Shown here in pieces: positions 9,536 through 63,614 of a DNA stretch of 64,000 nt (within the stretch, counting starts at the first letter, position 1; each line of letters begins with the position of its first letter). A model generated the notes under the pieces. It worked only from the letters and a program-made list of their open reading frames with translations. It was not told the origin of the DNA and ran no database searches. The stretch comes from Deltaproteobacteria bacterium (lineage in GTDB: Bacteria; SAR324; XYD2-FULL-50-16): the NCBI GenBank assembly GCA_018645005.1, contig JABGPJ010000066.1:41808-105807 (forward strand), read 5' to 3'. The position numbers and the translations under genes were made by a program.

Positions 9536-9773
9536 CAGCAATGTCCGGTTAGGTTTTTGCAGTTCAAAAGCTGAATGATAAAACCCGTCTCTACACATAA
9601 GGATTTAAAGATTTTCTAAGTTTGCTTCACGAAAAACCGCCAAACTCGCTCGTGCTTTGCTCAAACATGGCTCATTTTCGCTACGCTAAACTAAGAAAAT
9701 CTAATAAATCCTTATCAGCGCGATCCAGGCTTCATCATTCAGCTTTTTGCAAAAACCTAACCGGACATTGCTG
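9536..9773. mobile_element. MITE-like non-autonomous element, long form, with 9-bp target-site duplication
   Basis: Terminal inverted repeats CAGCAATGTCCGGTTAGGTTTTTGCA (9536-9561) and their reverse complement (9748-9773). Flanked by direct repeats AAATGGGTT at 9527-9535 and 9774-9782. The internal region of about 185 bp is non-coding. Confidence 0.7.
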
Positions 9774-9840
9774 AAATGGGTTAGATTGAAGATGACAGTA
9801 CGATATTTTAAAAACAACAAACCTGTTTATTCTCTCAGGA

Positions 9841-43385: not shown

Positions 43386-43829
43386 ATGCCAAGTTTTGTG
43401 ATTACTGAGAAATGTGACGGTTGTAAAGGCCAGGACAAAACCGCTTGTATGTATATTTGTCCTCATGACCTGATGAAACTGGACATGGATTCAATGAAAG
43501 CATGGAACCAAGAACCGGTTCAGTGCTGGGAGTGCTATAACTGTGTAAAAATCTGCCCTCAACAGGCAATTGAAGTTAGATGTTATGCTGACTTTGCTCC
43601 ACTCGGGGCCGCATGTATCCCCATGAGAGGAACGGATACAATTATGTGGACCGTCAAGTTTCGCGATGGAATGATTAAAAGATTCAAGTTCCCGATCCGA
43701 ACTATCGAAGAAGGATCACTGTCAATTACTGATGGCGTGCAAGATGTCCAGGTTGACGTTAGCAAGATTAAAGAGCAGGGACTGTACACACAACAGGCTG
43801 CAGGCGTAACGTATCCCGTTCCGGCATAA
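43386..43829 (+). CDS. aprB: Adenylylsulfate (APS) reductase beta subunit
   Basis: MPSFVITEKCDGCKGQDKTACMYICPHDLM...CWECYNCVKICPQQAI...MWTVKFRDGMIKRFKFPIRT matches Desulfovibrio AprB almost motif for motif. Confidence 0.92.
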   Translation: MPSFVITEKCDGCKGQDKTACMYICPHDLMKLDMDSMKAWNQEPVQCWECYNCVKICPQQAIEVRCYADFAPLGAACIPMRGTDTIMWTVKFRDGMIKRFKFPIRTIEEGSLSITDGVQDVQVDVSKIKEQGLYTQQAAGVTYPVPA

Positions 43830-47373: not shown

Positions 47374-47377
47374 AAAT

Positions 47378-49534
47378 ATGGAAAAAAAGATAGGAGTTTA
47401 TATTTGTTCTGGATGCGATATTGATAAAGCGGTAGAGACAGAAGGACTGGAAAAAGTGGCGGCCAATGAATACAAGGTCCCGGTTTGTAAAACCCATCCT
47501 TTTCTGTGCAGCCAAGAAGGAATTCAGCTTTTAAAAGACGACCAGAAAAACGAAGGTGTTAATTGTTTTGTGATTGCTGCCTGCTCATCCCGATATCATC
47601 AGAACGATTTTGATATGGGCAAGGAATCTATAATAGTCAGAACCCCCATTCGTGAACAGGTTGCCTGGATTCTGGAGCCGCGGGATGCGGAAGGCAAAGT
47701 TAACGAAGATACACAGATGGCCGCGGAAGATTACATACGCATGTACACTTCCAGAGTCCGTTTGACCAATATCCCGGAACCGTATCAGCAGGAAGAAACA
47801 GATAAGAGTCTGATCGTTATCGGCGGAGGGGTTGCCGGGATGACTGCCTCTATCGAAGCGGCTAAAGCCGGGTATAAAATTAACCTGATTGAGAAGTCCA
47901 ACCAACTGGGTGGATTTGCTTTAAATGACAAAAGCATTATTCCGACACAGATGCCTTTTGAAGATCTGATGCCGAATAATGTGAGCGAATTGATTGCTGA
48001 AACAGAAGCTATCAAAAATATCACTGTGCACAAGTCCAGCACAGTTGCATCTATTGCGGGGGAACCCGGTGCGTTTCAAGTAAAACTGGAAAATGCTGCA
48101 GCAACTGAGTTTAAAGCGGGCGCTGTTGTGATGGCTTCTGGAGCAACACCCTATGATGCGAGTAAATTAACAGATCTGGGTATTGCTTTTGACAATGTTG
48201 TCAGCAGCATCGAATTTGAGGAGATGGCAAAATCGGGTGCCTTGAAAAGAGCGGATGGACAGCCGGTGAAAAGTGTGGCTTTTATCCAATGCGCTGGGTC
48301 CAGGGATGAAGACCATCTGCCTTACTGTTCTTCTACCTGCTGCATGACATCCTTGAAACAGGCGGCCTATGTCAGGGAACTGGATAGTGAAGCCAAAGCA
48401 TATATTATATATAAGGACATGCGTACGCCAGGTCAGTATGAGGCTTTCTATCGTAAACAGCAGGACGACCCTGGTGTTTTCATGACGAAGGGAAAGGTTG
48501 TGGCAGTCAATGAACTGTCTGACAAAAAAGTAGGCATTGATGTCGATGAGTCACTATTGGGCGAAAATATTCAGCTGCAGGCTGATCTGGTGGTGCTCGC
48601 TATCGGCCAGGTGCCTTCTACTCTGGAAGAGGGTTCAATCCTGAACCTGCAGTATCGACAGGGACCGGATATGCCGGACTTGAAGTATGGATATCCAGAC
48701 TCCCATTTTGTCTGTTTTCCGTATGAAACTAGAAGAACTGGAATTTATGCTGCAGGAACGGTCCGACAACCAATGGATAATAATTTCGCTGTCAGGGATG
48801 CTACAGGTGCGGCTCTAAAGGCGATACAGGCGGTTGAAATGGCCGATCTCGGTCAACGGATGCACCCCAGATCAGGCGATTTGACTTTTATGTCACCGGA
48901 TCTTTCTCGCTGTACAGACTGTAAGCGATGTACAGAAGAGTGCCCTTTCGGGGCCATTGATGAAAATGAAAAAGGGACCCCTCTGCCAAACTCGGCTCGT
49001 TGTCGAAGTTGTGGTATTTGTATGGGAGCCTGTCCTGAGAGAGTGATCTCATTTGCAGACTATAGTGTTTCGATTCTGTCTGAAATGATCAAAAATATCG
49101 AAATTCCCGATGAAGATGACGAAAAACCAAGAGTGGTTGTTTTCATCTGTGAAAATGATGCGATGCCGGCACTTGAGCAAATGGCCATGGATCGACAAAA
49201 AATCAGTCCGTTTGTTCGGTTTATTCCATTGAGATGTCTGGGTGGTAATAACCTGGTCTTCGTATCGGATGCCCTGTCTGTTGGCGTTGACGGTATGATG
49301 TATATGGGCTGCAAGCATGGTGATGATTATCAGTGCCACTTCATCAAGGGTAGTGAATTGTGTGACGAGCGGCTGGGCAAGGTTCAAGAAACCATCGGTA
49401 GACTCGCGCTGGAATCGGAAAGGATTCAGCAGTTCGAAATCAGCTTGAATGATGCACCAAAGCTGCCTCAAATAATCGCTGATTTTATGGAAGAGCTGGA
49501 AGATTACGGCCCCAATCCGTTTAAGGGTATGTAA
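47378..49534 (+). CDS. qmoB: Quinone-interacting membrane-bound oxidoreductase subunit B (HdrA-like with MvhD-like C-terminus)
   Basis: 718-aa protein. Second FAD motif VIGGGVAGMTASIEAAKAGY. Ferredoxin-type CxxCxxCxxxCP motifs. C-terminal Cys-rich MvhD-like region. Confidence 0.9.
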   Translation: MEKKIGVYICSGCDIDKAVETEGLEKVAANEYKVPVCKTHPFLCSQEGIQLLKDDQKNEGVNCFVIAACSSRYHQNDFDMGKESIIVRTPIREQVAWILEPRDAEGKVNEDTQMAAEDYIRMYTSRVRLTNIPEPYQQEETDKSLIVIGGGVAGMTASIEAAKAGYKINLIEKSNQLGGFALNDKSIIPTQMPFEDLMPNNVSELIAETEAIKNITVHKSSTVASIAGEPGAFQVKLENAAATEFKAGAVVMASGATPYDASKLTDLGIAFDNVVSSIEFEEMAKSGALKRADGQPVKSVAFIQCAGSRDEDHLPYCSSTCCMTSLKQAAYVRELDSEAKAYIIYKDMRTPGQYEAFYRKQQDDPGVFMTKGKVVAVNELSDKKVGIDVDESLLGENIQLQADLVVLAIGQVPSTLEEGSILNLQYRQGPDMPDLKYGYPDSHFVCFPYETRRTGIYAAGTVRQPMDNNFAVRDATGAALKAIQAVEMADLGQRMHPRSGDLTFMSPDLSRCTDCKRCTEECPFGAIDENEKGTPLPNSARCRSCGICMGACPERVISFADYSVSILSEMIKNIEIPDEDDEKPRVVVFICENDAMPALEQMAMDRQKISPFVRFIPLRCLGGNNLVFVSDALSVGVDGMMYMGCKHGDDYQCHFIKGSELCDERLGKVQETIGRLALESERIQQFEISLNDAPKLPQIIADFMEELEDYGPNPFKGM

Positions 49535-49705
49535 CCCGTGAACATTTTGAATTTTTGATTGAACATTCACTGTCATTTTGACCAATTCCAGTTTGTGTCA
49601 AAATGACATCTGTTATCTGACAATCTGTGGAACGTTAGTGATTTATTGGATAGTGTCTATATCCTGAGAAGATTGTCGAATACCAAATAATTGGAGGTTT
49701 TTCGA

Positions 49706-50914
49706 ATGTCAGACCGAGTATTAATCAATGCGGATTTGAAGTTTGTAGAGGGAGTAATGAAAGCAGGTGGGGAAGACCTGAATAAATGCTATCAATGCTC
49801 AACCTGCACGGTCGTTTGCCCACTTACTCCTGAAGGGGCTCCGTTCCCCAGAAAAGAGATGATAGCCGCACAGTGGGGTATCAAAGACAAACTGATCAAA
49901 AGTATGGACCCCTGGCTGTGCTTCCACTGTAATGACTGTTCAGAGCAGTGTCCGAGAGGAGCTAAACCAGGTGACGTGATGGCTGCGATTCGCAACATGA
50001 TTATTGCAAATGTAGCGGTTCCGTCCTTTCTGGGCAAATTAACCCAATCTGCCGGTGGCGCACTGGGACTGTTACTGTTCCCGATCATCCTGATTGCCGC
50101 TGTGATTTTTATGGTTAATGGTGGGGAAATGGCGTTTTTGGATAATCCGGTAATCGATTTTCACAAAAATATGATTTCTCAACTGGCCATTGAAATGATT
50201 TATATTCCGGCACTATTCTTTGGAATAATTACGGGTCTGTTAGGGGTCAAAAATTTGATAGCGGGCTTAAGCGAAACCTATCCTAAGACTGATAAAGGGG
50301 AAGCCCTGGTACCTGCCATCATCGGAACGGTGAAAGATATTCTGAGCCATAAAAAATTCAGGGAATGTGGGGTGAACCAGAGTCGGAATATTGCGCATAT
50401 GTTTCTGTTTTATGCTTTTATCGGCCTGGCGATCACGACCGCAGGTGTAACCGGGATTTATTATATCAACCTGTTTGCCGGCTCCAATGTTGTGACGCCG
50501 ACGCCACTGCCGTTCTTTCATCCCATCAAAATCATTGGTAACGTCAGTGCTCTGGCAGCTTCAATTGGTATCCTGTTGATTGTTTACAGAAGATTGACCG
50601 CCGAAAACGTCGGGAATACGGTTGCGTTTGACTGGATTTTCATCGTGAACATTCTGCTAATTGTAGCAACGGGTATCTTGGCACAAACAGTTCGGGTGGC
50701 TGGAAGTCAGGCTTCATACTTCATCTATTATTGCCATCTGGTTTTAGTTTTCTATCTCTTCATGTATATGCCACACTCGAAGTTCGGTCATATGTTTTAT
50801 CGAACTGCCGCTTTGGTCTATTCACGCTACTCAGGTCGTGAGAAAAGTATCGGGATGACTTTTCTGGAAGGGAAACAACAAGAACAACTTGAAGAATCAG
50901 ACAAAGTTGCATAA
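49706..50914 (+). CDS. qmoC: Quinone-interacting membrane-bound oxidoreductase subunit C (ferredoxin domain plus membrane heme b domain)
   Basis: N-terminal CYQCSTCTVVCP and CFHCNDCSEQCP iron-sulfur motifs, then six predicted transmembrane helices. Start set to ATG 49706 because a GGAGG site sits 8 bp upstream; the ORF track TTG at 49691 overlaps that site. Confidence 0.85.
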   Translation: MSDRVLINADLKFVEGVMKAGGEDLNKCYQCSTCTVVCPLTPEGAPFPRKEMIAAQWGIKDKLIKSMDPWLCFHCNDCSEQCPRGAKPGDVMAAIRNMIIANVAVPSFLGKLTQSAGGALGLLLFPIILIAAVIFMVNGGEMAFLDNPVIDFHKNMISQLAIEMIYIPALFFGIITGLLGVKNLIAGLSETYPKTDKGEALVPAIIGTVKDILSHKKFRECGVNQSRNIAHMFLFYAFIGLAITTAGVTGIYYINLFAGSNVVTPTPLPFFHPIKIIGNVSALAASIGILLIVYRRLTAENVGNTVAFDWIFIVNILLIVATGILAQTVRVAGSQASYFIYYCHLVLVFYLFMYMPHSKFGHMFYRTAALVYSRYSGREKSIGMTFLEGKQQEQLEESDKVA

Positions 50915-51014
50915 CAGTTTGCAGGTTTTGTAGTCTTTGTTGATCAATCTGTCACATCTGCCGCGATTCCTTTCGCGATAGATTTTTTTGAATAAAAACT
51001 GGGAGATACAGAAT

Positions 51015-52280
51015 ATGTCAAATTTAATAGCTCCGCATGGCGGAAAAGGTTTGGTTTGTGCGTTGCTGGAAGGCGCTGCACTGGAAGCGGAAAAGCAAAA
51101 AGCTGCAGGTTTGAAGCAACTTTCAATTTCAGGTCGTGAAAATGGTGACCTGATCATGATGGGTATCGGTGGATTCAGCCCTCTGAACGGTTTTATGGGA
51201 AAAGCTTCCTGGAAGCGCGTTTGTGAAGAATACTTGCTTGAAGATGGCACATTCTGGCCGATTCCGGTGACGCTGTCAGCCGATAAGGCAGATGCCGATG
51301 CGATCAATATTGGTGATGAAATCGCTCTGGTCAACCCTGATGGCGAAACAATGGCCACTATGAAGGTTGAAGAGAAGTTTGAAATGAGCGAAGCCGATAA
51401 GAAATGGGAATGTGAAAAATGCTATAAAGGCAAAGGTGAAGAAAGTGCAGACGATAAATTCTGGGAAATAGCCATGGAAGATCATCCTGGCGTTCAGATG
51501 GTAATGGGACAAAAAGACGTTAACCTGGCTGGCCCTGTTAAGGTACTTGGCGAAGGCGATTTCCGCGAAAGATTCCCTGGTGTATATATGTCACCGGCCG
51601 AAAGCCGCGCGATTTTTGAGAAAAAAGGCTGGTCAACTATTGCCGCTCTGCAACTCAGAAACCCGATGCACAGATCTCATGAGCATCTGGCCAAAATTGC
51701 GGCTGACGTATGTGATGGTGTTTTTATTCATTCACTGGTGGGCGCTTTGAAGCCTGGTGATATCCCGGCTGAAGTACGTATCGAGTGTATCGATACGTTG
51801 ATTGACGGCTATTTTGTCAAGGAAAACGTTGTTCAGGGTGGTTACCCCCTCGACATGCGCTATGCAGGACCGAGAGAAGGTCTGCTGCATGCCACTTTCA
51901 GACAAAACTATGGTGTCTCCAAAATGATTATTGGTCGTGACCATGCAGGCGTTGGTGATTTCTACGGTCTGTTTGATGCTCAGACCATTTTTGATGAAAT
52001 TCCAAAGCCTGAGGATGATGGTAAACGCCTGCTTTGTGAGCCACTGAAAATCGACTGGACCTTTTACTGCAAAACTTGTGATGGAATGGCGTCTCTCCGA
52101 ACATGTCCTCATGACGACTCAGTCCGTGTTAAACTTAGTGGAACCAAGCTGAGAAAAGCGTTGTCAGAAGGAACCGAGGTTGTAGATCATTTTGGTCGGG
52201 AAGAAGTCCTGGTTATTCTGAGAAAATACTATGCTGGCTTGAAGGACAAAGTTGAAATTAAGATGCATAACAAAGTCTAG
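51015..52280 (+). CDS. sat: Sulfate adenylyltransferase (ATP sulfurylase)
   Basis: [20 protein letters not shown] start as in Desulfovibrio Sat. [13 protein letters not shown] (QTRN/HxxH) active-site motifs. Start placed at the internal ATG at 51015. Confidence 0.9.
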
Positions 52281-52317
52281 TGATTGATTGATCACTGGAA
52301 AGTGTCTTTTAGCTTTA

Positions 52318-52352
52318 GGTGCGCCAATAGGCGCACCGTCAGAAGTTGTTTT
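52318..52352 (+). terminator. GC-rich hairpin after sat, a possible attenuating terminator
   Basis: GGTGCGCC-AATA-GGCGCACC at 52318-52337, followed by a T-rich tract (GTTGTTTTCT). Confidence 0.35.
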
Positions 52353-52408
52353 CTACCCTGACACGCAATTTTTAAGACGAATTATCAGAAATTAAGGAGA
52401 ATCTAATC

Positions 52409-53329
52409 ATGACAGTTTATGTAGTAGGGCATAAAAGCCCGGATACCGATTCTGTAACTGCTGCAATCGCCTATGCCGGATTGAAAAAAGCGCAGGGAGT
52501 AGACGCAGTTGCGGCTTGTCAGGGAGAACTTAACCCTGAAACACAGATGGTATTGGATAAGTTCGGCTTTTCCGCTCCTGAGATCGTAACAGACGCTGCT
52601 GGCAAACAGGTAATCCTGGTTGACCACGGTGACCTGGCGCAAGCCCCGGATAACCTGGCCGATGGTGAATTACTGGAAGTTGTTGACCACCATAAAGTGG
52701 GTGACATCACCACAAACGGCCCCATATTTTTCTATACCAAGCCTGTGGGCTGTACTGGTACAATCCTGAAAGAACTATATGATACAAACAGCGTGGAAAT
52801 TCCAGCCAATGTTGCTGGGATTCTGCTTTGCGCCATCTTGAGTGATACAGTGCTGTTTAAATCACCGACCTGTACTGAAGAAGATAAAAAGGCGTGTGAT
52901 GAACTGGCAAAGATCGCAGGCGTGGACAATATGGAAGCGCTGGCCATGGAAATGTTCAAAGCGAAATCAGCGGTTGCAGGTGTTCCAGCAAGAGATCTGG
53001 TATTCCGCGATTATAAAGATTTCGATATGGGCGGCAAGAAAGTGGGTATTGGTCAATTAGAACTGGTCGACCTTTCTCTGATCGATGATGTTCGCGACGA
53101 TCTGCTGAAGGCGGTTCAAGAAGTTAAGGCCGAAGGACGACATTCCGTTTTCCTGATGCTGACCGATATTATGAAAGAGGGATCTGACCTGATGGTTGTT
53201 TCGGATGATCCTTCTGTTGTGGAAAAAGCTTTTGGCAAAAAACTGGAAGGGACAACAGTTTGGGTTGATGGAATGATGAGCCGCAAGAAGCAGGCTGTTC
53301 CGCCTCTGCAGGAAGCTTTTGGTGCATAG
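52409..53329 (+). CDS. ppaC: Manganese-dependent inorganic pyrophosphatase (family II, DHH-DHHA2)
   Basis: MTVYVVGHKSPDTDSVTAAIAYA DHH motif, the downstream DHH and the DHHA2 GGH region. Length 306 aa. Confidence 0.9.
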   Translation: MTVYVVGHKSPDTDSVTAAIAYAGLKKAQGVDAVAACQGELNPETQMVLDKFGFSAPEIVTDAAGKQVILVDHGDLAQAPDNLADGELLEVVDHHKVGDITTNGPIFFYTKPVGCTGTILKELYDTNSVEIPANVAGILLCAILSDTVLFKSPTCTEEDKKACDELAKIAGVDNMEALAMEMFKAKSAVAGVPARDLVFRDYKDFDMGGKKVGIGQLELVDLSLIDDVRDDLLKAVQEVKAEGRHSVFLMLTDIMKEGSDLMVVSDDPSVVEKAFGKKLEGTTVWVDGMMSRKKQAVPPLQEAFGA

Positions 53330-53741
53330 CAACTAGTGGGTTGCTTGAAGTTGTTTCTTTTATCGCCCGCCACGGCATAAATAATCGCTTGTCGGGTGAT
53401 AAAAACCGGAAAGTAAAACGAAAATTCCGGGTCTGGATCCGATTCGGTGAAATCTGAAGTTCACTTCTGATGATTGGAACCGAACACCGAGTTACAGATT
53501 TCAAGCGGTTGACTGACACTTGTGCCGTATTTCAACAGGTTACCGAAATTGTCAGTCTGACCGCTTACGAATCGTTACTTTTTCTTTAAATTTTGTGTTA
53601 CTTCTACTATATGTATATCTCCATCTTTCGACTATTTAAAATCAGTGGAAGTTGTACAAAACGGAAAAGAGAATATTTGTTCACGCCTCAGGCGTAAGAT
53701 GATTTTTTCATAAGATTAACGAGAATAATCTGGGAGGAAAA

Positions 53742-54971
53742 ATGCAACTAACTGGATTGAAGTACGGAAAGCTTTTAATGGACATGGTCGAATTCCCCGT
53801 AGCCAAAATGCTGACAGAAGATGCTACGAAAGAGGAAATTGAAGGAATGTTAAAAGAGTCCGGGAAAGTGGTGGTCAAACCGTCTTTTATGGGAAGTGCG
53901 GGTAAGAAGGGAAAGGCCGGATTGGTAAAAATCGCTAGTAGTTATGCGGAAGCAGATGCTGCTAGAAAAGAAATGTTTTTCGCCAAATACAGCCAGGGGC
54001 CGGTTGAGCATAAGGCTAAAGGGGTGACTTTCGAAGAGTTTGTTGAATCGGATGCGGAACTGTATTTCAGTTTGACAACATCGACCATTACACGGAAGCC
54101 GGTCATGCTTTTGATCGTTGAAGGTGGTGTCGAAGTTGAAGATCTGCCCGCGGAAAAGAAAGCCATCGTTTCATTTGATCCATTGGTCGGATTGAAAGGG
54201 TATCATGTTAACGATGCGTTAATTAAATTGGGTTGCCCCAAGGCTTTCATCAGCCCTCTCGTGCAGCAACTGCCAAAATTATGGGATTTATATAACAATT
54301 ATGGACTAACCATGATTGAGCTTAATCCGATCAGGATGAAGAAAGGAAAAAGGCCATTGCCTGTGGCATGCGACGTCAAGGCTGCTTTCGACCAGGATGA
54401 TCCGGCACATACACGTATTAAGTTACCACCCGAAGTCTTCGCAACTGAACTCACCGATTTTGAATTGGAAATCAACCAGTTGAGAACCTATCAGGGACAA
54501 AGTGATGTGGTTGAAATCAATCCAAGTGGAACCATTCTACCTTTCATGTTTGGTGGTGGTGCCAACAGTGCAGCCACAGAAGTTCTAGGAGACAGAGCAA
54601 TCTTTTCATCTGACTTTGGCGGGAACCCCCCGTACCAGAAGATGAAGGAGATAGCCGATATCTCTTACCGACATTTCCTGGCACGTGCCAACATTGTGTC
54701 GATTATCGGTGGTAAGGCAAACAATACCGATATCTTCGTGACTTTTAAAGCGATGCTGGACGCGCTGAGAGAGAATATCAAACTGAATCCGAATATTCAC
54801 GTAGTGATTGGCCGTGGTGGCCCCCAGGTTGTTCAGGGTATGATCTACGCTCGTGACCTTCTCGACAGTCTGAAGATCCCTTACAAAATGTTCGGATTTG
54901 ACAGCAGTATGATCGGAGTATTGAATTATACGTTGGAACTGGATGCCTGGCTTGAGTCTAAGAAAAAATAA
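53742..54971 (+). CDS. ATP-grasp subunit of an ATP-citrate lyase / citryl-CoA synthetase-like enzyme (AclB/CcsB/SucC-like)
   Basis: 409-aa protein with a SucC-like ATP-grasp N-terminus (VVVKPSFMGSAGKKGKAGLVKI). It is paired with the downstream CoA-ligase and citrate-synthase-like fusion. Confidence 0.55.
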   Translation: MQLTGLKYGKLLMDMVEFPVAKMLTEDATKEEIEGMLKESGKVVVKPSFMGSAGKKGKAGLVKIASSYAEADAARKEMFFAKYSQGPVEHKAKGVTFEEFVESDAELYFSLTTSTITRKPVMLLIVEGGVEVEDLPAEKKAIVSFDPLVGLKGYHVNDALIKLGCPKAFISPLVQQLPKLWDLYNNYGLTMIELNPIRMKKGKRPLPVACDVKAAFDQDDPAHTRIKLPPEVFATELTDFELEINQLRTYQGQSDVVEINPSGTILPFMFGGGANSAATEVLGDRAIFSSDFGGNPPYQKMKEIADISYRHFLARANIVSIIGGKANNTDIFVTFKAMLDALRENIKLNPNIHVVIGRGGPQVVQGMIYARDLLDSLKIPYKMFGFDSSMIGVLNYTLELDAWLESKKK

Positions 54972-55081
54972 GGCTGATCCAAAAATGACCAAATGAATCT
55001 TAAAGATTGATTCATTCAGACTTGAATCGAATATTTTGAATATGCTAATCAGAAAATATATCACTTTTTATTGGAGAAGCT

Positions 55082-57796
55082 ATGAGCCAAACTAATCCGT
55101 TCCCCTACTATGTGGGAATAAATAGTCTAGAAGAGATAGCGAATAAACAGACACGCTGTGTTGTGATGAATATTCTTGGTGGTGAGAGTAAAGGTGTTAC
55201 CCCTACATCACACGAGTTCAGCGGTGGAAACATTGTTGCGGGTGTCCAGTATGGACGAGCCGGCAAAATGGAAACAAAAATCGGTGATATTCCGGTTTTT
55301 GGAAGTATCAAAGAGATCGTTGATGCAGGCATCGAGTTTGACACGGGTGTGATTTATCTTCCACCAACTGCTGTTGCTGCCGCTGCTGACGAATTGATCG
55401 CGCACAATCCGAAACTGACCAAGATCGTTGTCCTGACTGAAAAAGTCAGCGTGAAGGACTCCCAGTTTATCCGTGCAATAGCCCAGAGCAATCAGATTGA
55501 CGTTTTTGGTGGGAACTGCCTGGGTATCGGGAATTCCTGGGAACAGGTTCGTGTGGGTGGCGCTTTGGGTGGAAAATCACCCGGTGAGAGTCTGGTGAAA
55601 GGAAGTGTGGCTGTTTACAGTAACTCTGGGAACTTCAGTACAACCATTCCGGAATATTTAAAAACAGGTGGTTGGGGAACATCAACGGTGCTGAGCAGTG
55701 GAAAAGACCTCTATATCCAGTTCGCTCTGGCAGAATTCCTGAACGCAGCTGAAAATGATGCACGCACCAAGGGTATCATGATGTATATCGAGCCGGGCGG
55801 ATATTATGAAAAACAAGCCCTGGACTGGATTGAAGAAGGTCTGTACAAGTTTACCAAGCCTATCGTTTGTTGTGTCACCGGACGCTGGAAAGCCAACCTG
55901 TCACGTGCGGTCGGCCATGCTGGCGCAATCGCTGGTGGTGGTGATGATGCGCTGGCCAAAGAGGGGTGGTTTGATACCTATTTTGGAGTGGGTGAGTTTG
56001 ATCCAGCCAACCCCAAAGTCTCAAAAAAGGGTGTTCGCATCGCTTCTATCCAGGATGCTCCGACAGCCATGACAGCGATCATGAAAGAGATCGGTGTTGA
56101 GCCGGATTTTGTATCATCAGGTGACCTAAGCCTGAAGCCCTGGTTTGTGAATGACCAGGATGCCGGAATCCCGGAAAAACTGCAAATGCAGAAAGTTGAA
56201 GCCATGGCGCCTTACAATGATGCCATCAAAAAACTGGGAAACCAGGTGGGTGCGCAACTGTCACGGGAATCCATGCGGAATAAATCAGGTGCCAGTATGA
56301 TGAACCCCAAATCTCAGATTACCGAAGTTCATGGGGTTTCTGTGCTGGATTTGGTCAAGGAAAGCTTTGCTGCGACAAACGTCTTTGCTCTGATAAAAGA
56401 GCTGCCCGCTGCTGCAGATATGCCGATGGTTAACGCGATCATGAACTACTACACGGCCATTGGTGCTGAGAACATGGATGTGGCTGTAAAAGCCCGTGCC
56501 AACGATTCATTGCCCAACGCTTATCTGGGTGCTGCTGTGATGATGAATGGTGACAGACAACTGTTCAAAGATTACCGAGCCATGACCAACACCATGATCG
56601 ACCTGTTCTATACCCAGGTCTGGAATGACAAGTCTGTCAATGAGGCTGCCATTGCTAAAGCGCTTGAGCAAAAAGGTGCCATGCCGGAAGGGGAAGCCAG
56701 TGCACAGGACGCCAAAGTGGCTGATTTCTTTGTTGACGTGATTGAGAAAAACAACCTCCAGAGTGTGTTTACTGAATACGCCATTAAATACGCAGCAGAA
56801 AACAAGGTGAATAAGCTGGACTTGCTGATGGCTGCCATGCTGCTGACACTTTCCTGGAAGGCCCTGACAGACAGGCAGATCCCACAGGAAACAGCGGCTG
56901 ATCTCGGTAACTACCTGTTCCTCAATGGTGTGATTGTGGGTTGTTCAGCTCCGGCTTATCCAAATAACGATTTCTGGAACAAGCTGACCTCACTGGAGGA
57001 CCTCAGTCTGTTGAATATGGATTTCTCTGATTCGATTTTCAGGATTCTCTTTAACAGGGAACCGGCAGAGAAAGAACTGTTTGCACTGAACGCCATGTTG
57101 AATCTGACGATCTCCAACGGACCAGGTACGGTTAGTGCCAAGGGATCCAAGGAATCTGTCAGTGGTGGTAACCCCATCGCTTCCTGCTATGTCGGTTGGA
57201 TGGAAAACACCGGTCGTGATCACGGTGGAAACGGATTTGAGGCCATCAAGTATGTGAATGACAACATGGGCGCTTTTGATCCGTACAAGGCGACATCTGA
57301 AGAGATGAATGCAGCCATGGAAGAAATTGCACAGAAAGCTGCAGAAGAATATGGCTCATTGAAGAAAAAAGCCAAGGAAGAAGGTGACATGAAGTACTTC
57401 AAGGTGCCTTGTGTGAATCATCCTGTCTTCAAAGGCAAGCCGATTAACTACGATCCTCGAGAGACTCACATTCGAGAACTGTTCAAGGAAAGAAATGAAA
57501 TAAATCCCTTCCAGGAATTTTATCATGTTCTTGTCCAGAAACTTTACGATGTGGGTGCAACCAAAAACGTGTTCTGCGTCAACATCGATGCAGTTATTGC
57601 CACCATCTCACTGGATCTGATTTGGAAAGATATCAAGAGTGGGGCCATGCCTGAAAAAGATATGCAGGACATCGCTTTTACACTCTTCCAGTTTGCACGG
57701 ATGGTGGGTTGTTCAGCTGAAATCGCCGATCATAAGAGCCGTGGAAACCCGATCGATTGTAGAACTCCTGCCAGCCAATGTTTCTGGGTTGGTTAG
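55082..57796 (+). CDS. 904-aa fusion of a succinyl-CoA-synthetase-alpha-like CoA-binding/ligase domain, a phospho-histidine loop and a citrate-synthase-like domain (ATP-citrate lyase alpha / citryl-CoA lyase-like)
   Basis: SucD-like CoA-binding N-terminus. A GHAGA histidine loop near residue 279, as in ATP-citrate lyase. The C-terminal region carries citrate synthase catalytic signatures: NHPVFKGKPINYDPRE (like GHAVLRKTDPR) and CVNIDAV (like PNVDAH). Confidence 0.55.
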   Translation: MSQTNPFPYYVGINSLEEIANKQTRCVVMNILGGESKGVTPTSHEFSGGNIVAGVQYGRAGKMETKIGDIPVFGSIKEIVDAGIEFDTGVIYLPPTAVAAAADELIAHNPKLTKIVVLTEKVSVKDSQFIRAIAQSNQIDVFGGNCLGIGNSWEQVRVGGALGGKSPGESLVKGSVAVYSNSGNFSTTIPEYLKTGGWGTSTVLSSGKDLYIQFALAEFLNAAENDARTKGIMMYIEPGGYYEKQALDWIEEGLYKFTKPIVCCVTGRWKANLSRAVGHAGAIAGGGDDALAKEGWFDTYFGVGEFDPANPKVSKKGVRIASIQDAPTAMTAIMKEIGVEPDFVSSGDLSLKPWFVNDQDAGIPEKLQMQKVEAMAPYNDAIKKLGNQVGAQLSRESMRNKSGASMMNPKSQITEVHGVSVLDLVKESFAATNVFALIKELPAAADMPMVNAIMNYYTAIGAENMDVAVKARANDSLPNAYLGAAVMMNGDRQLFKDYRAMTNTMIDLFYTQVWNDKSVNEAAIAKALEQKGAMPEGEASAQDAKVADFFVDVIEKNNLQSVFTEYAIKYAAENKVNKLDLLMAAMLLTLSWKALTDRQIPQETAADLGNYLFLNGVIVGCSAPAYPNNDFWNKLTSLEDLSLLNMDFSDSIFRILFNREPAEKELFALNAMLNLTISNGPGTVSAKGSKESVSGGNPIASCYVGWMENTGRDHGGNGFEAIKYVNDNMGAFDPYKATSEEMNAAMEEIAQKAAEEYGSLKKKAKEEGDMKYFKVPCVNHPVFKGKPINYDPRETHIRELFKERNEINPFQEFYHVLVQKLYDVGATKNVFCVNIDAVIATISLDLIWKDIKSGAMPEKDMQDIAFTLFQFARMVGCSAEIADHKSRGNPIDCRTPASQCFWVG

Positions 57797-58040
57797 TGTT
57801 TGACGGTCAAAACTGTTTTGGGCAGCTGCGAAATGGGTATAAACACGCTTTCAAGGCTGCCAATCAGTGACCTGGATCAATCAATAATTTGAGACGTTAT
57901 TGTAGAGTGGGTCAACAGAAGAGAAAGAGTACGATAACCGCCCATCGGTGCTGAAAAAAGAGCTTAGATGGGAGGTTCATTTGGGGGAAACACAAATCTG
58001 TGTTTCAAACGATTTAAAAACAGATATTACGGAGAATAAT

Positions 58041-58379
58041 ATGGGTTTTGAACTGAATGGCACAACTTATGAGACTGACGAAGATGGATACTTGATCAAC
58101 ATCGGTGGATGGAACGAAGATGTGGCCCATCACCTGGCTGAAGAAGAAGAGATTCCAGAACTGACCGAAAAACACTGGCAGATTATTAATTTTCTGAGAG
58201 GCTACTACGAAGAATACCAGATCGCGCCGATGATCAAGATTTTGATCAAAGCCATCATGAAAGATATGGATCTTTCCAAGCGTGATGCTTCAAAGATGCT
58301 GTATGAACTGTATCCTGCAGGACCTGCAAAGCAAGCCTGTAAAATTGCCGGACTGCCTAAGCCGACCGGTTGCGTCTAG
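58041..58379 (+). CDS. dsrC: Dissimilatory sulfite reductase subunit DsrC
   Basis: Ends with the diagnostic ...CKIAGLPKPTGCV C-terminal arm carrying both conserved cysteines. Start set at ATG 58041, which has a GGAG site upstream and gives the typical 112-aa size. Confidence 0.9.
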   Translation: MGFELNGTTYETDEDGYLINIGGWNEDVAHHLAEEEEIPELTEKHWQIINFLRGYYEEYQIAPMIKILIKAIMKDMDLSKRDASKMLYELYPAGPAKQACKIAGLPKPTGCV

Positions 58380-58512
58380 CCCATTTCGCATGATAAATGC
58401 CCCGGGATCATTGAATTTGATGATCGTCTAGGGGAAGTTTTTTCAATAATCGCCAACAAAGGGTGATACAAATTTACTAATTTGAGATTGCCCAGCTATT
58501 TGGAGAGGATTA

Positions 58513-59727
58513 ATGTCAGATACACCAATGATGGACGAACTGGAAAAAGGTCCATGGCCAAGTTTCGTCAGAGAAATTAGAAGAGCCGGTAAGCAAAGTG
58601 CTACCGCAAGAGATTTAATTAATATTCTTGAACTGTCTTACAAAGATAAAAAAACCCACTGGAAACATGGTGGTGTTGTCGGTGTCAGGGGATACGGTGC
58701 CGGTGTTATCGGCCGCTATGTCGATGATCCCGTCCAGTTTCCCGGCGTTGCCCATTTCCATACGGTTCGTGTGAACCAGACCTCCGGTTTTGTGTACAAT
58801 ACCAAAGGACTGGGCGAGATCATGGATATCTGGGACAAACGTGGTTCCGGTATGACCAACATGCACGGTTCTACGGGTGACCTGGTTCTTCTAGGAACAA
58901 CCTCAGAACAACTGGATCCGATTTTTACTGACATCTCCCAGAAAGGTTGGGACTTGGGTGGTTCCGGATCGGATTTGAGAACACCAAGCTGCTGCCTGGG
59001 TCCTGCACGCTGTGAATACGCCTGTATCGACACACTGGCAATTACACGGGAGTGTACAAACTATTACCAGGATGAATTGCATCGCCCGGCGTTTCCATAC
59101 AAGTTTAAGATTAAAGTCGCCGGTTGTTCAAACGACTGTGTGGCATCGATTGCCCGTTCCGACCTCTCAATTATCGGAACCTGGAAAGATGATATCCGCA
59201 TTGATCAGGACGAAATTGCAAATTACGTCAAGGGTGGCGGAATTGATATCATGAAGGAAGTGGTCATGATGTGCCCAACCCAATGTATCGATTTTGATGG
59301 CACCAAAATGGAGATCGACAACAGCAACTGTGTTCACTGTATGCACTGCATCAACAAATTGACTAAGGCACTGCGTGTTGGAACAGATCAAGGTGCAACA
59401 ATTCTGCTGGGTGCTAAGGCGCCGATTGTTGAAGGAGCGATGCTTGCTTCCGTGATTGTACCCTTTATGAAACTGGAAGAACCATTTGAAAATCTGAAAG
59501 AATTGATCGAAGCTCTCTGGGAAGTCTGGGATGAAGATGGAAAGAACAAGGAGCGGATTGGTGAATTCATGGAAAGAATGGGGAAAGGTGAATTTGTTGA
59601 AGCTGTCGGAGAACAACTCGCTGACGGTGAATGCGGAATCGAAATGACCTCTCAAATTGATATGATTAACCATCCGAGAGAGAACCCATACATTTTCTAC
59701 GATGAGTATCTTGAAGAAGAAGGCTAG
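58513..59727 (+). CDS. dsrA: Dissimilatory sulfite reductase alpha subunit
   Basis: LEKGPWPSFV...HWKHGGVVGV...GVAHFHTVRV...LTNMHGSTGD...DELHRPAFPYKFKIKVAGCSNDCVASIARSD matches Desulfovibrio DsrA over nearly the full length. Confidence 0.95.
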   Translation: MSDTPMMDELEKGPWPSFVREIRRAGKQSATARDLINILELSYKDKKTHWKHGGVVGVRGYGAGVIGRYVDDPVQFPGVAHFHTVRVNQTSGFVYNTKGLGEIMDIWDKRGSGMTNMHGSTGDLVLLGTTSEQLDPIFTDISQKGWDLGGSGSDLRTPSCCLGPARCEYACIDTLAITRECTNYYQDELHRPAFPYKFKIKVAGCSNDCVASIARSDLSIIGTWKDDIRIDQDEIANYVKGGGIDIMKEVVMMCPTQCIDFDGTKMEIDNSNCVHCMHCINKLTKALRVGTDQGATILLGAKAPIVEGAMLASVIVPFMKLEEPFENLKELIEALWEVWDEDGKNKERIGEFMERMGKGEFVEAVGEQLADGECGIEMTSQIDMINHPRENPYIFYDEYLEEEG

Positions 59728-59832: not shown

Positions 59833-60906
59833 ATGGCAGAAGAAAGAATTACTGACCAGGGTGCGAAGGACTATAAAGAGTTCCTGCATCCGGTTATGGT
59901 AAAAAATTACGGACAGTGGAAATACCACGAAATTCTCAAGCCTGGTGTTCTGGTCCATGTCGCTGATTCCGGAGATAAGATTTACAGTGTCCGGGTCGCT
60001 TCACCCAGGCTGTTGAGCACGGTGAGTATTCGGTTTTTCATGTCTGTTGCGGATAAGTATTGTGACGGTTTCCTGAGATGGACAACCCGAAACAACGTTG
60101 AGTTCCTGACTGATAAGGAAGAAAATGTTGAACTGATCATCAAGGCTGTGAACGACGATGGCTGGCCGGTCGGTGGAACAGGAAGAACTGCTTCCAACGT
60201 TGTGCATACACAGGGTTGGGTTCATTGTCATACATCGGCAACTGATGCTTCCGGTATCGTAAAATCACTGATGGATGAGGTTTTCGAGGATTTTACATCA
60301 GAGAATCTTCCCGGAAAACTGAAACTGGCTCTGGCCTGTTGTCTGAATATGTGTGGTGCGGTCCACGCATCTGACATCTCCATTCTCGGTATTCACCGTC
60401 GACCCCCCAAGGTAGATTATCACTTGCTGGGTCAGATCTGTGAAATTCCGACAACTATCGCAGCTTGTCCGACTGGAGCGATCCGTCAGGATATCGTCGA
60501 TGGTGTGAAAGCGATGAAAATAATTGAAGATCAGTGTATGTTCTGCGGTGCCTGCTACACAGCTTGCCCCAACATGCCTCTGGCAGATGCCCTGAATGAC
60601 GGTGTCTCTATCTGGGTCGGTGGGAAGATTGCAAACGCCAGATCCAAACCCGGCTTCACCAAGCTGGTTGTCCCTTTTCTTCCGAATAATCCGCCGCGAT
60701 GGCCGGAAGTTATTGATGCCGTGAAGAAAATTATTCAGGTATACAAAGATAACGGAAGAAAATGGGAACGCCTTGGCGAGATGATCGATCGGATTGGTTG
60801 GGCGAAGTTTTTTAAGCTGACAGGTTTTGCGTTTACCAAATATCATATTGATGATTATAAATTGGCGACCAAATCCTATAATATGTCGGCTCATGTAAGA
60901 TTTTAG
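59833..60906 (+). CDS. dsrB: Dissimilatory sulfite reductase beta subunit
   Basis: [59 protein letters not shown]...[11 protein letters not shown] matches DsrB. Siroheme/iron-sulfur Cys clusters are present. Confidence 0.95.
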
Positions 60907-60915
60907 GAGTTAAAA

Positions 60916-61188
60916 ATGGCAGTAGATTTAAATGTAGTAGCTGAAGATATGTTTGAAATGGTTAAAGAAGTTGCCGGCATCAAAAAATTAAAACCGGGTG
61001 ACGTTTTGAAAGCCATGGTCAAGAAGTATGGGGATCAGGGATTCACGAAGAAAGATGCGAAAGCAGCTATCCGCATTCTGATTGATGGTGAAAGGCTGGT
61101 ATATACCTATATCAACGGCTCTTTTGTTGAACTGCCCCATGAAGACGGCGCCGCTATGGCCGCTAATGAGGCTGCAAGGAATAAATAA
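60916..61188 (+). CDS. dsrD: DsrD-like small winged-helix protein
   Basis: 90-aa ORF starting 10 bp after dsrB, the canonical dsrD position. LVYTYINGSFVEL resembles the DsrD wing region. The sequence match is weaker than for dsrAB. Confidence 0.65.
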   Translation: MAVDLNVVAEDMFEMVKEVAGIKKLKPGDVLKAMVKKYGDQGFTKKDAKAAIRILIDGERLVYTYINGSFVELPHEDGAAMAANEAARNK

Positions 61189-61264: not shown

Positions 61265-61627
61265 ATGTTTGTAATAACTGAACGCGCGGCAGAGCAGTTT
61301 AAAAACTCTGCTGATGCAGTGGGTGATGATACCGTTTCATTGCGGATCTCCGCTAGAATATCCGTTCCCGGCGGTATGAAGTATAATATGGGCTTTGACC
61401 ATCAAAAAGAGGATGACACAGCCTGTGAGATATCCGGGATAAAGTTTCTACTGGATCCGGAATCGGTTAAAAATACAAAGGATATGTTGGTTGACTTTCG
61501 AGACTTTGAGGGCGCTGAACAATTTGTATTTCTGAACCCCAATGATAAAAAAGAAAACTGTGAAACATCACCCGATGGGTGTGATCCCGATGGTAACCCA
61601 ACCTGTAAAACCTGTACAGGGGATTAG
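61265..61627 (+). CDS. HesB/IscA-family (A-type carrier) protein with atypical Cys-rich C-terminal tail
   Basis: IscA-like core (SLRISARISVPGGMKYNMGFD...FVFLNPN) but the canonical CGCG tail is replaced by NCETSPDGCDPDGNPTCKTCTGD, which has 5 Cys. Confidence 0.55.
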   Translation: MFVITERAAEQFKNSADAVGDDTVSLRISARISVPGGMKYNMGFDHQKEDDTACEISGIKFLLDPESVKNTKDMLVDFRDFEGAEQFVFLNPNDKKENCETSPDGCDPDGNPTCKTCTGD

Positions 61628-61937
61628 GGCTGGCCACCAGGAGAACAGCACTTCCCGGACGGAGAGGTAAAGTACGACCGCCGTTGGAATCCGGTTTTCA
61701 AGAAAACCAGTGTAAGGTCCGAAGACTTCTTGCCCGGTTGGGCCTGAGCTCATCTGACAAACAGGCAATTCAGATTAGCTGCCTGTATTTAACTAGAGGC
61801 TGACCCCGCTGGGAATCGCTACAAACATTCTCCGGTGAACGTTAATTAATTCATGGTCGGTGGATATGGTAATTTCAAATTGCCTGGAAACTGCCTATTT
61901 TCTTTGATTGTGAAAAATTTTTTAAACAGGAAGAAAT

Positions 61938-63614
61938 ATGGCCATCGTTGTTAGAAAGATAAAAAGACCAGTTAGAGCCCATATCGGCGGCGGGAAAAAA
62001 TCCCAGAGTACGAAGCTGCCACGATATGTCGCCAAGCGGCCGCCATGTACTGATACATGTCCAAGCAGCGAGGATATCCGTGGGTATCTGACATATATTG
62101 CTCAGTCTGAAGAGTATGGACGGACTTTCGAAGAGTCCATGGAGCAAGCATGGCATATGCTGACAGACAAAAACCCGATGCCGGCTGTCATGGGAAGGGT
62201 TTGTCCTCACCCATGTGAAACAGCATGTAATCGTAAAGATAAAGACGGCGCTGTCAGTATTAATAAAGTAGAACTGTCGATTGGACAATTCGGGCTGGAA
62301 AACAAACTGGCTCTGAAAGCATTAACGGAAGAGAAGACGGGCAAGAAGATTGCTGTTATCGGTAGTGGACCGTCCGGTATCTCATGCGCTTACCAACTCG
62401 TCAGAAAAGGTCACTCTGTGACTGTTTTTGAATCCAAGTCAGAACCAGGTGGAATGATTCGCTGGGGTATTCCCGCATATCGACTGCCAAGAGATATTAT
62501 TGCAGCAGAATATCAAAGAATTTTTGATCTGGGCGTTGAATTCAAACCGAATACCAAGGTTGGAAAAGATATCAGTCTGGATCAACTGAAAAGTGATTAT
62601 GATGCGATTTATCAAGCAATTGGTGCTCAGGTTGGTTGGTCTCTCGGATTAGACGGAGAAGATTCAGCTAATGTTTATACGGGTGTTGAATTCCTGTACA
62701 AGCATAATATGCAGGAACAGATGAATATTGGTGATAAGGTGATCGTCGTGGGTGGTGGTGACACTGCTATGGACGTTGCCAGAAGCTGCAAACGGATGGG
62801 AGCTGATGTGACGGTTGTTTATCGCCGGAGCAGAAACGAAATGCCCGCTATTGAAGAAGATATCGTCGGTGCTGAAGAAGAAGGGATTAACTTCAATTTC
62901 CTATGTACACCAATTAAACTACAGGTTGCAGACGGAAACGTTACCGGGATGACATGTGTACGCATGGAACTGGGTGAGCCGGATGAAAGTGGTCGGGCCA
63001 GCTTTTCTGTGATTGATGGGTCCGAGTTTGATATCGCAGCCACCTCTTTAATTCCTTCCATCAGCCAGGAAGCTGATTTTGAGGGTATGGAAGAGATGAA
63101 AAATGAGAAAAACTGGACGTCTATTGCCACAGATTTCGGTCGTTTGAGTGAAGATGGCAAAATCTGGTCTGGTGGGGATGTGACCAGAGGCTTGGGGTTA
63201 GTGACTGAGGCTGTTGGTGACGGACGGATTGCTGCTGAAGATATTGATCGCTTTGTGATGGGCGCTGAATATGAGAAGCCGGAAGTCATGCCGGTGATCA
63301 ATTCTGCGACGATGCACATGCAACATTATGCAGATGCAGCTCGCAATTCCATTGGTGAAAAACCCGGTGCTGAAAGGATCTCTGACTTTAATGAGTATAT
63401 TATTCCTTTCACCATTGAAGCGATCAAAGCAGAAACAGCTCGCTGTATGAGTTGTGGTTCCTGTTTTGATTGTGAAAACTGCTGGAAGTTCTGTGGTGAT
63501 GGTGCTGTCAATAAGCTCGCCAAGGGGCAGCACTTTGAATTCAATCTGGATAAATGTATTGGTTGTAGTAAATGTATGGAAGAGTGCCCATGCGGACTGA
63601 TTGACATGATCTAA
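61938..63614 (+). CDS. GltD-family NAD(P)H-dependent iron-sulfur flavoprotein with C-terminal 2x[4Fe-4S] ferredoxin domain (DsrL-like architecture)
   Basis: GltD N-terminal Cys pattern (CTDTCP...RVCPHPCETAC). FAD motif IAVIGSGPSG. Second dinucleotide motif VIVVGGGDTAMD. A C-terminal extension carries CMSCGSCFDCENC and CIGCSKCMEECP. Confidence 0.6.
   Translation: MAIVVRKIKRPVRAHIGGGKKSQSTKLPRYVAKRPPCTDTCPSSEDIRGYLTYIAQSEEYGRTFEESMEQAWHMLTDKNPMPAVMGRVCPHPCETACNRKDKDGAVSINKVELSIGQFGLENKLALKALTEEKTGKKIAVIGSGPSGISCAYQLVRKGHSVTVFESKSEPGGMIRWGIPAYRLPRDIIAAEYQRIFDLGVEFKPNTKVGKDISLDQLKSDYDAIYQAIGAQVGWSLGLDGEDSANVYTGVEFLYKHNMQEQMNIGDKVIVVGGGDTAMDVARSCKRMGADVTVVYRRSRNEMPAIEEDIVGAEEEGINFNFLCTPIKLQVADGNVTGMTCVRMELGEPDESGRASFSVIDGSEFDIAATSLIPSISQEADFEGMEEMKNEKNWTSIATDFGRLSEDGKIWSGGDVTRGLGLVTEAVGDGRIAAEDIDRFVMGAEYEKPEVMPVINSATMHMQHYADAARNSIGEKPGAERISDFNEYIIPFTIEAIKAETARCMSCGSCFDCENCWKFCGDGAVNKLAKGQHFEFNLDKCIGCSKCMEECPCGLIDMI

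Follow-up and report, generated by a model that had tools for sequence, protein, structure and literature searches.

A probable type II ATP-citrate lyase with a duplicated lyase domain, encoded inside a dissimilatory sulfur gene cluster

The DNA analyzed here, called the window throughout, is a stretch of 64,000 nucleotides from contig JABGPJ010000066.1 of a Deltaproteobacteria genome with a SAR324 lineage in GTDB (GenBank assembly GCA_018645005.1). Between its sat-ppaC and dsrCAB genes are two adjacent genes whose products, judged from their sequences, very probably form a heteromeric ATP-citrate lyase (ACL) of type II. The initial annotation of the window had reported open reading frames (ORFs) of 409 and 904 amino acids (aa) at this place, and we found both exactly as it described them. 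We conclude that the pair is an intact, ordinary member of a known, biochemically uncharacterised family. The parts of the two genes, including the CcsB-like and succinyl-CoA synthetase (SCS)-like region of the larger one, are laid out as follows; model confidence is given as the predicted local distance difference test (pLDDT).

53742..54971, + strand: small-subunit gene, ATG start, 409 aa, AclB/CcsA-like, with an ATP-grasp domain and a citrate-binding domain
54972..55081, + strand: spacer between the subunit genes, 110 nt
55082-57796, + strand: large-subunit ORF, ATG start, 904 aa
55082..56086, + strand: large subunit, residues 1-335, CcsB/SCS-alpha-like CoA-binding and ligase domains
55913..55927, + strand: GHAGA phosphohistidine loop with His279 (residues 278-282)
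56087..56260, + strand: linker, residues 336-393, partly conserved (GDLSLKPWF), in a low-confidence part of the model (pLDDT 56-80)
56261..56998, + strand: lyase-like repeat 1, residues 394-639, degenerate, predicted all-helical, without catalytic residues
56999..57778, + strand: lyase-like repeat 2, residues 640-899, putative catalytic citryl-CoA-lyase/citrate-synthase-like domain

Both proteins are recognized by the expected domain families. The small subunit matches Pfam ATP-grasp_2 (3e-19) and Citrate_bind (1e-12), both above cut-off. For the 904-aa protein, the initial annotation had pointed to profiles of the Ligase_CoA type, CoA_binding and Citrate_synt, and the corresponding matches are CoA_binding (1e-9), Succ_CoA_lig (9e-12) and Citrate_synt (4e-8; 33.2 bits against a gathering cut-off of 27), again all above cut-off. 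Among solved structures, the closest relative of the small subunit is CcsA of the Hydrogenobacter citryl-CoA synthetase (CCS) (6hxq_B, 1.5e-31), followed by an archaeal (Methanothrix) ACL (4e-23), human ACLY (5e-15), Chlorobium AclB (7e-13) and the SCS beta chain (5e-11). Similarly, the first 290 residues of the large subunit are closest to the second CCS chain, CcsB (6hxq_A, 8e-34), and then to SCS alpha chains (1e-26 and weaker) and Chlorobium AclA (5e-13). An AlphaFold model of the whole large subunit, made from a 95-sequence alignment, has a mean pLDDT of 87.7, and its best structural matches in Foldseek are Chlorobium AclA, at the top, CcsB, human ACLY and the Methanothrix ACL. Residues 1-335, for which the pLDDT is mostly above 88, match CcsB with a template modeling (TM) score of 0.85. 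By these comparisons, the enzyme has the layout of an ACL, and its ligase parts are nearest to the two-enzyme CCS system.

The family to which the pair belongs is large. There are approximately 2,200 homologues of the large subunit, nearly all of them 900-915 aa long (family members, 894-914 aa), and a scan of one genome per species returned 274 relatives. The nearest, at 82-91% identity, come from uncultured genomes, two of which are labelled SAR324. Desulfosarcina variabilis, Desulfobacter latus and D. vibrioformis (cultured) and metagenome-assembled genomes (MAGs) of D. postgatei follow at 70-72%, with Desulfobacter at 70-71%; then come Leptospirales/Spirochaetia, a Lambdaproteobacteria MAG, Geobacter and Desulfuromonadales at 50-58%, and Ignavibacteria, Melioribacteraceae, Geothrix/Holophagaceae, Nitrospinota and KSB1 at 46-50%. 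In a neighbour-joining tree the window clade is sister to Desulfobacter/Desulfosarcina.

A type II ACL was reportedly postulated by Hugler and Sievert in 2011, with Magnetococcus (Mmc1_3638/3639), Candidatus Endoriftia and Thioflavicoccus mobilis (aclAB) as its members. Papers refer to this postulated enzyme in Magnetococcus, tubeworm symbionts and Thioflavicoccus (PMC3522073, PMC6783814, PMC6315080), and the primers published for it (PMC3522073) translate to VAKEEWF and NGFEAIA, for which the window protein has AKEGWF (292) and NGFEAI (717). The forward primer matched one metagenome contig (L087), and the reverse primer is exact on the same contig, 1.3 kb downstream. Both sites are exact inside a 905-aa ORF (L087:1921-4638) that has a 423-aa ATP-grasp/Citrate_bind ORF before it and monomeric idh, acn, pntAB and mdh after it, which is the layout described for the reverse tricarboxylic acid (rTCA) cycle cluster of tubeworm symbionts (PMC6315080). 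In BLASTP, this ORF is 44% identical to the window's large subunit across residues 7-903, in collinear stretches. Because the homology to the primer-carrying ORF is full-length, we assign the window pair to the type II ACL family; the link to Magnetococcus itself comes from the literature and not from a sequence comparison. In the tree the symbiont-type sequence falls together with a large clade of Burkholderiales, and a second homologue search with a Variovorax member, aimed at Magnetococcus and Endoriftia, returned Burkholderiales only. Taken together, the best matches to CcsA and CcsB, the in-register residues described below and the identity to the primer-defined ORF bear out the initial annotation, which had proposed a type II ACL or a fusion of citryl-CoA synthetase with citryl-CoA lyase (CCL).

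The Burkholderiales sequences (Variovorax, Cupriavidus necator, Polaromonas, Comamonas, Acidovorax and Ralstonia) form a clade of 907-aa paralogues, 40% identical to the window protein, in which all catalytic motifs are kept. The paralogue (L086, Variovorax sp., 6689-10724; P0125, P0261-P0379) adjoins genes for a class II aldolase and a major facilitator superfamily (MFS) transporter, and a role for it in the rTCA cycle is unlikely.

The residues that ligation and cleavage would require are conserved in both subunits. Four residues of the small subunit, G294, N327, T329 and R358, correspond in the alignment to G309, N346, T348 and R379 of human ACLY, which we take to be the citrate-binding residues of that enzyme. 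None of the four varies in any of the 83 small subunits compared, the Burkholderiales and symbiont-type members included. In the large subunit, H279, H714, H780, R793, D836, R873 and R894 are invariant among 95 family sequences, as is each position of the GHAGA loop (G278, H279, A280, G281 and A282), which aligns with the GHAGA of CcsB and SCS-alpha. The motifs named in the initial annotation are all present, with GHAGA at 278-282, NHPVF at 779, DPRE at 791 and NIDAV at 834. When a family profile of the C-terminal half was compared with the PDB, only CCL matched (6hxp_A, 4e-4), and the alignment pairs LAHGGNGFEA with SAHGGALEDA and NIDAVIA with NVDGAIA. Using hhalign against a profile of nine citrate synthases encoded in the fetched loci, we aligned HGGNG with LHGLAN, NHPVF with GHAVL, DPRE with DPRY, NIDAV with NVDAQ and GRMVG with GRAIG. 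This places His, His, Arg, Asp and Arg in register with residues that correspond by motif to H264, H305, R314, D362 and R387 of E. coli citrate synthase (residue list in PMC13147460). The initial annotation had staked its interpretation on the C-terminal domain fitting no non-citrate family better and on the catalytic His and Asp being retained; since both align to CCL and to citrate synthase, the citrate interpretation stands.

The large subunit was also said in the initial annotation to exceed AclA by about 280 aa. This excess is real, as 625 residues follow His279 and the 904-aa protein compares with a Chlorobium AclA chain of 617 aa (6hxj_B), leaving approximately 280-290 extra residues. 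Rather than an undefined insertion, however, residues 394-639 are, by profile comparison, a degenerate tandem copy of the lyase domain. Aligning them with residues 640-899 in hhalign gave a probability of 97.4% and an E-value of 1.5e-11 over 195 columns, compared to E-values of at least 0.14 for reversed, column-shuffled and unrelated-domain controls. Pfam has no match to residues 300-640 of the large subunit, and a phmmer search with the extra region against 1.84 billion representative proteins returned 141 matches only, with no other architecture; those with a recorded position or name are members of the type II ACL family, the others being mostly short fragments. Repeat 1 lacks counterparts of H714, D836 and R873 as well as the whole NHPVF...DPRE segment, and because of these losses it should be catalytically inactive.

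Residues 420-900 are confidently predicted to be all-helical, with a pLDDT of 93-98 in repeat 1, and a separate model of residues 375-904 reached a pLDDT of 85.5 and a predicted TM score (pTM) of 0.88. The top 50 Foldseek matches of this separate model are all full-length citrate or 2-methylcitrate synthases, aligned over approximately 500 columns with target-normalised TM scores of 0.5-0.66, and neither the shorter CCL nor the ACLY lyase module is a better match. In the model, the two lyase copies together thus resemble a complete citrate synthase. An hhalign comparison of repeat 1 with citrate synthase gave no signal, and in a shallow alignment of nine citrate synthases we saw no internal repeat similarity.

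With these features, the window pair can be compared with the known systems closest to it. As in the postulated type II ACL, a small ATP-grasp/citrate-binding gene adjoins a large gene that encodes, in the same order, CoA-binding, His-loop and citrate-synthase-like parts, and the large subunit is of the same size class (~905 aa in the postulated enzyme), about 290 aa longer than type I AclA. Unlike the symbiont-type enzyme, the window copy falls in a separate subclade and lies inside a dissimilatory sulfur locus instead of a tricarboxylic acid (TCA) cycle cluster. With type I ACL (Chlorobium AclBA, 6hxj, and human ACLY) the pair shares the succession of ATP-grasp/citrate-binding, GHAGA CoA-binding and citrate-synthase-homology parts, along with the residues at the citrate-binding positions. 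However, its similarity to type I chains (5e-13, 7e-13) is far below that to CCS, it does not reach the curated ACL ATP-grasp cut-off, and it has two lyase-like domains in 904 aa, whereas AclA has a single citrate-synthase-homology domain of ~260 aa in 617. The CcsA/CcsB and Ccl proteins of Hydrogenobacter thermophilus (PDB 6hxq, 6hxp), which carry out the same chemistry in two steps, are the best sequence and structure matches of both ligase parts, but there the CcsA, CcsB and Ccl polypeptides are separate and the lyase is a single 268-aa domain, while the window has CcsB-like and Ccl-like parts in one ORF and the lyase fold twice, once in degenerate form. Finally, full-length citrate and 2-methylcitrate synthases are the best matches of the C-terminal 530 residues, which share their catalytic register, but similarity in sequence can be detected only over the last ~260 residues, and the module is fused to a CoA ligase. 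The two lyase halves of the window protein are still recognisably homologous to each other, and those of the citrate synthases that we tested, in the shallow alignment, are not.

Verschueren et al. reportedly proposed in 2019 that citrate synthase arose from a tetrameric citryl-CoA lyase module as its ancestor. If so, the lyase module of type II ACL, as a tandem duplication of the CCL fold, could be a candidate intermediate between single-domain CCL and citrate synthase, and two large subunits, rather than four, could supply the four lyase folds to which ACLY devotes four chains. We consider it unlikely, though worth stating, that this evolutionary scheme holds together with its companion idea, that the pair has its fixed place between sat-ppaC and dsrC in one SAR324-like lineage because citrate synthesis, which would yield ATP, is really coupled to sulfate activation, which consumes it. 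We found no account in the literature of a lyase module that is duplicated and half dead, or of the pair's clade-specific embedding in a complete cluster for sulfur respiration.

From the mechanisms of ACLY and CCS we infer how the enzyme would work. The ATP-grasp domain of the small subunit would bind ATP, and its citrate-binding domain, which is of the ACL type, would bind citrate. His279 of the GHAGA loop would be phosphorylated and would hand on the phosphate, so that citryl-phosphate and then citryl-CoA would form on the CcsB-like domains. The C-terminal lyase domain, using His714, His780 and Asp836 together with Arg793, Arg873 and Arg894, would then split citryl-CoA into acetyl-CoA and oxaloacetate. 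The overall reaction lies near equilibrium, and run in reverse it makes citrate and conserves one ATP, as biochemical work on Desulfobacter has shown.

Several observations weigh against an ACL. Scores with the curated models are low: PF24948/Citrate_synth_N, the ACL ATP-grasp model, gives 48.6 where its cut-off is 83, and the matches of repeat 2 to NCBIfam models for citryl-CoA lyase also stay below cut-off. The window contains no other TCA-cycle gene, although clustering with acn, idh, mdh, kor or frd is typical of the family and does not define it. Additionally, 2-methylcitrate synthases stand beside citrate synthases among the top structural matches, the 40% identical paralogues of aerobic Burkholderiales have neighbors unlike those of a TCA-cycle enzyme, and the literature that we searched reports no purification or assay of any type II ACL member, citrate being the presumed substrate. 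The low scores, the structural matches, the aldolase and transporter genes and the lack of published biochemistry would also suit a ligase-lyase for a different acid, which would activate and cleave, or form, the CoA ester of 2-methylcitrate, citramalate or malate. We find such an enzyme improbable, as the residues at the ACLY citrate-binding positions are invariant even in the Burkholderiales and symbiont-type members, the pair occurs in TCA-cycle clusters of Desulfosarcina and of the primer-defined contig, and ACL activity and proteomics are published for Magnetococcus and Endoriftia, which are reported to be without a classical ACL (PMC6783814, PMC3522073). Database names suggest instead an SCS paralogue (SucD2; 'succinyl-CoA synthetase alpha subunit/citrate synthase'), and the NCBIfam SCS models are indeed the top matches for both proteins. 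That identity is hardly credible: scores of 83.7 and 127.6 fall far short of the respective equivalog cut-offs of 370 and 336, an ANxT motif and the citrate-binding domain of ACL are present in the small subunit, and the large subunit extends for a further ~570 residues that include an entire lyase active site.

The type II ACL pair is surrounded by a complete dissimilatory sulfur cluster in the order aprB, aprA, qmoABC, sat, ppaC, the pair, dsrC, dsrA and dsrB, so that the locus is larger, by aprBA and qmoABC, than the initial annotation had listed.

43386-43829: aprB, upstream of sat
43900-45870: aprA, upstream of sat
46120-50914: qmoABC, upstream of sat
50988-52280, + strand: sat (ATP sulfurylase), Pfam ATP-sulfurylase with PUA_2
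52409-53329, + strand: ppaC (family II pyrophosphatase), Pfam DHH with DHHA2
53330..53741, + strand: spacer 5' of the pair, 412 bp, AT-rich, with a hairpin at 53359-53403 and a strong ribosome-binding site, GGGAGG, before the ATG
57797..58040, + strand: spacer 3' of the pair, 244 bp, with a hairpin at 57805-57872 ahead of dsrC
58041-58379, + strand: dsrC, NCBIfam TIGR03342, above cut-off
58513-59727, + strand: dsrA, NCBIfam TIGR02064, above cut-off
59833-60906, + strand: dsrB, NCBIfam TIGR02066, above cut-off
60916-61188: 90-aa ORF directly 3' of dsrB, in the usual dsrD position
61265-63614: IscA-like gene (120 aa) and 558-aa GltD/DsrL-like gene (61938-63614), downstream of the dsr genes

The GC content is flat throughout the locus, and we therefore rule out a recent foreign insertion of the pair; a pseudogene is likewise ruled out by the intact ORFs with their conserved residues. 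Elsewhere in the window, a 261-aa protein with a CxxCxxCC putative metal-chelating domain is encoded directly 5' of aprB (42381-43166), and positions 27506-29518 encode a 670-aa protein with five ELWxxDGT repeats (TIGR04534, 7e-69) whose flanking ORFs have no family match.

Relatives of the pair show which parts of this arrangement are general. The small-subunit gene is directly upstream of the large-subunit gene in nearly all of the 85 loci examined, an association far beyond chance. The order sat-ppaC-pair-dsrC-dsrAB occurs only in the eight nearest loci (L001, L005-L012; short fragments show part of it). These loci come from metagenome contigs and from uncultured genomes, and two carry a SAR324 label; their large subunits are 82-100% identical, and their Sat and DsrA 80-100% identical, to those of the window. 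Two of them (L001 and L005, 83-100% identical) also encode DsrT- and DsrMKJO-type domains further downstream (RsbRD_N, Nitrate_red_gam and Fe-S proteins). In Desulfosarcina variabilis the pair lies between mdh and frdAB on one side and acn, idh, korDABG and a carboxylase gene on the other; in an uncultured Desulfobacter it is found among unrelated genes; and in Geobacter and Leptospirales a FrdA/B-like gene is 3' of it. This context in the Desulfosarcina, Geobacter, Leptospirales and Geothrix relatives points to the citrate node. In nine Geothrix/Holophagaceae/Acidobacteriota loci (L056, L060, L062, L064, L069, L075, L076, L079 and L083) a gene for a eukaryote-type citrate synthase (motif GYGHAVLRKTDPR) is near the pair, so these organisms keep two enzymes of the citrate step side by side; in L069 that gene (12785-14131, minus strand) is directly downstream of the pair and convergent with it.

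The initial annotation had called the surroundings a sulfate-reduction locus and had pointed to the oxidative use of ACL in Desulfobacter. Both the label and that direction are plausible and unproven here, because the nearest relatives include SAR324, whose Dsr is of ambiguous direction: SAR324 DsrAB falls between the reductive and oxidative types, the markers are mixed and nearly all genomes have DsrL (PMC11406059). In the window, the 558-aa protein is a GltD-like NAD(P)-binding iron-sulfur flavoprotein resembling DsrL (NCBIfam PRK12771, 6e-183), and DsrL beside dsrAB is reported to be characteristic of those SAR324 genomes in which reductive markers occur together with oxidative ones (PMC11406059). 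No Pfam or NCBIfam family, DsrD included, matches the 90-aa ORF in the dsrD position; viewed by eye, the C-terminal half of this ORF looks like the winged helix of DsrD, which bears on whether the locus is reductive. As for Desulfobacter, passages of PMC12137691 and PMC9768450 that cite Moller 1987 and Schauder 1987 describe an ACL used oxidatively, with a gain of ATP, and in D. hydrogenophilus reductively as well.

We lean toward a Desulfobacter-like, direction-switchable use of the enzyme in an anaerobe living on sulfur respiration. In the oxidative direction, as in Desulfobacter postgatei (acetyl-CoA + oxaloacetate + ADP + Pi -> citrate + CoA + ATP) it could recover part of the ATP cost of Sat and PpaC, and its position between sat-ppaC and dsrC would reflect that coupling; we rate this a little short of an even chance. 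The tree, with Desulfobacter and Desulfosarcina as the sister group, is consistent with it, as are the presence of aprBA, qmoABC, sat, ppaC, dsrC and dsrAB in the locus, the DsrT- and DsrMKJO-type domains downstream in two relatives, and an arrangement kept in eight loci although Sat and DsrA there are only 80-92% identical to those of the window. Moreover, the family is common in anaerobic acetate-oxidising respirers (Geobacter, Geothrix and Desulfuromonadales) that also have citrate synthase, and a precedent exists in Desulfobacter, according to the passage of PMC12137691 that cites Moller 1987. However, gene order alone gives no direction, a shared transcript is unlikely because the spacers are long and bear hairpins, the pair is unlinked to sulfur genes in Desulfobacter or Desulfosarcina, and no acetate-activation gene accompanies it within the window.

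The same enzyme could instead cleave citrate in an rTCA cycle for CO2 fixation, in which case apr, qmo, sat and dsr may work in the oxidation of sulfur or in a sulfur metabolism that runs both ways. Autotrophic sulfur oxidisers are the organisms in which type II ACL was defined (PMC3522073, PMC6783814, PMC6315080), and CO2 fixation has been assigned to the enzyme of tubeworm symbionts and Magnetococcus. The SAR324 label of two of the nearest genomes, with the mixed Dsr markers of that group and the DsrL of nearly all its members (PMC11406059), would fit such citrate cleavage, as would the GltD/DsrL-like gene after the dsr genes, the 90-aa ORF without a DsrD match and the 'dsr-clustered GltD-like oxidoreductase' that is also found in the rTCA cluster of the symbionts (PMC6315080). 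Yet the closest relatives from characterised organisms are sulfate reducers, the 90-aa ORF is DsrD-like by eye, and we see no dsrEFH in the window, nor further downstream in L001 or L005. We regard purely reductive use as somewhat less likely than the oxidative direction, though to be taken seriously.

Co-regulation with sulfate respiration had also been suggested in the initial annotation. The placement between sat-ppaC and dsrCAB is real, but co-regulation is not established, given hairpin-bearing spacers of 412 and 244 bp, conservation limited to the ribosome-binding site and an arrangement confined to one small clade. Among the eight relatives, only TAATCTGGGAGGAAAAATG, in the ribosome-binding region, is invariant in the upstream spacer. 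Two relatives (L007, ~8296-8332, and L008, ~8274-8316) retain the hairpin that follows ppaC (53359-53403), with base changes on both arms (UAUCGCCCG/CGGGUGAUA, GAUCGCCCG/CGGGCGAUU and UUGCCCAU/AUGGGUGA). It has no U-tract after it and may mark the 3' end of the ppaC transcript or stabilise it. The downstream hairpin (57805-57872) folds with -31 kcal/mol and a z of -2.7. Scans for promoter and terminator consensus sequences found sites at chance level, with a terminator-like site only for sat, and an Rfam scan of 52200-58600 found no RNA family. Because the long flanking spacers carry hairpins, the most economical reading is that the pair forms a transcription unit of its own, one that is strongly translated; the observations neither support nor contradict a co-regulation with sat or dsrC.

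The 110-nt spacer between the two genes has conserved elements of its own. It carries GCUGAUCCA right after the small-subunit stop codon and UUGGAGAAGCU, a Shine-Dalgarno sequence, before the large-subunit start, and the conservation of both extends from the window clade as far as Desulfobacter and Desulfosarcina (L001, L007-L014, L027 and L043 at ~9890-10000). GCUGAUCCA can pair with UGGAGAAGC in the Shine-Dalgarno region of the large-subunit gene, and this pairing may be a translational-coupling device. RNAalifold proposes GCU/AGC and CCA/UGG pairs in the spacer, all of them invariant, so that they have no covariation support.

ACL decides whether the TCA cycle can be reversed to fix CO2, or can run forwards and gain an additional ATP. 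Postulated in 2011, the type II form serves as a marker gene, and we found no biochemical or structural study of it in the literature. Public databases name its members 'CoA-binding protein' or 'succinyl-CoA synthetase', and as a result automated pathway calls miss it. Our literature searches for the gene behind the ACL of Desulfobacter or Desulfosarcina found nothing, and no ACL or CCL gene was reported in a Desulfosarcinaceae culture (PMC12137691). The occurrence of the family in Desulfobacter species thus offers a candidate gene for an activity known since 1987. The duplicated lyase domain bears on the evolution of citrate synthase and on the assembly of the enzyme, and the placement of the pair inside a complete apr-qmo-sat-ppaC-dsr cluster marks this lineage for the joint study of carbon and sulfur energy metabolism.

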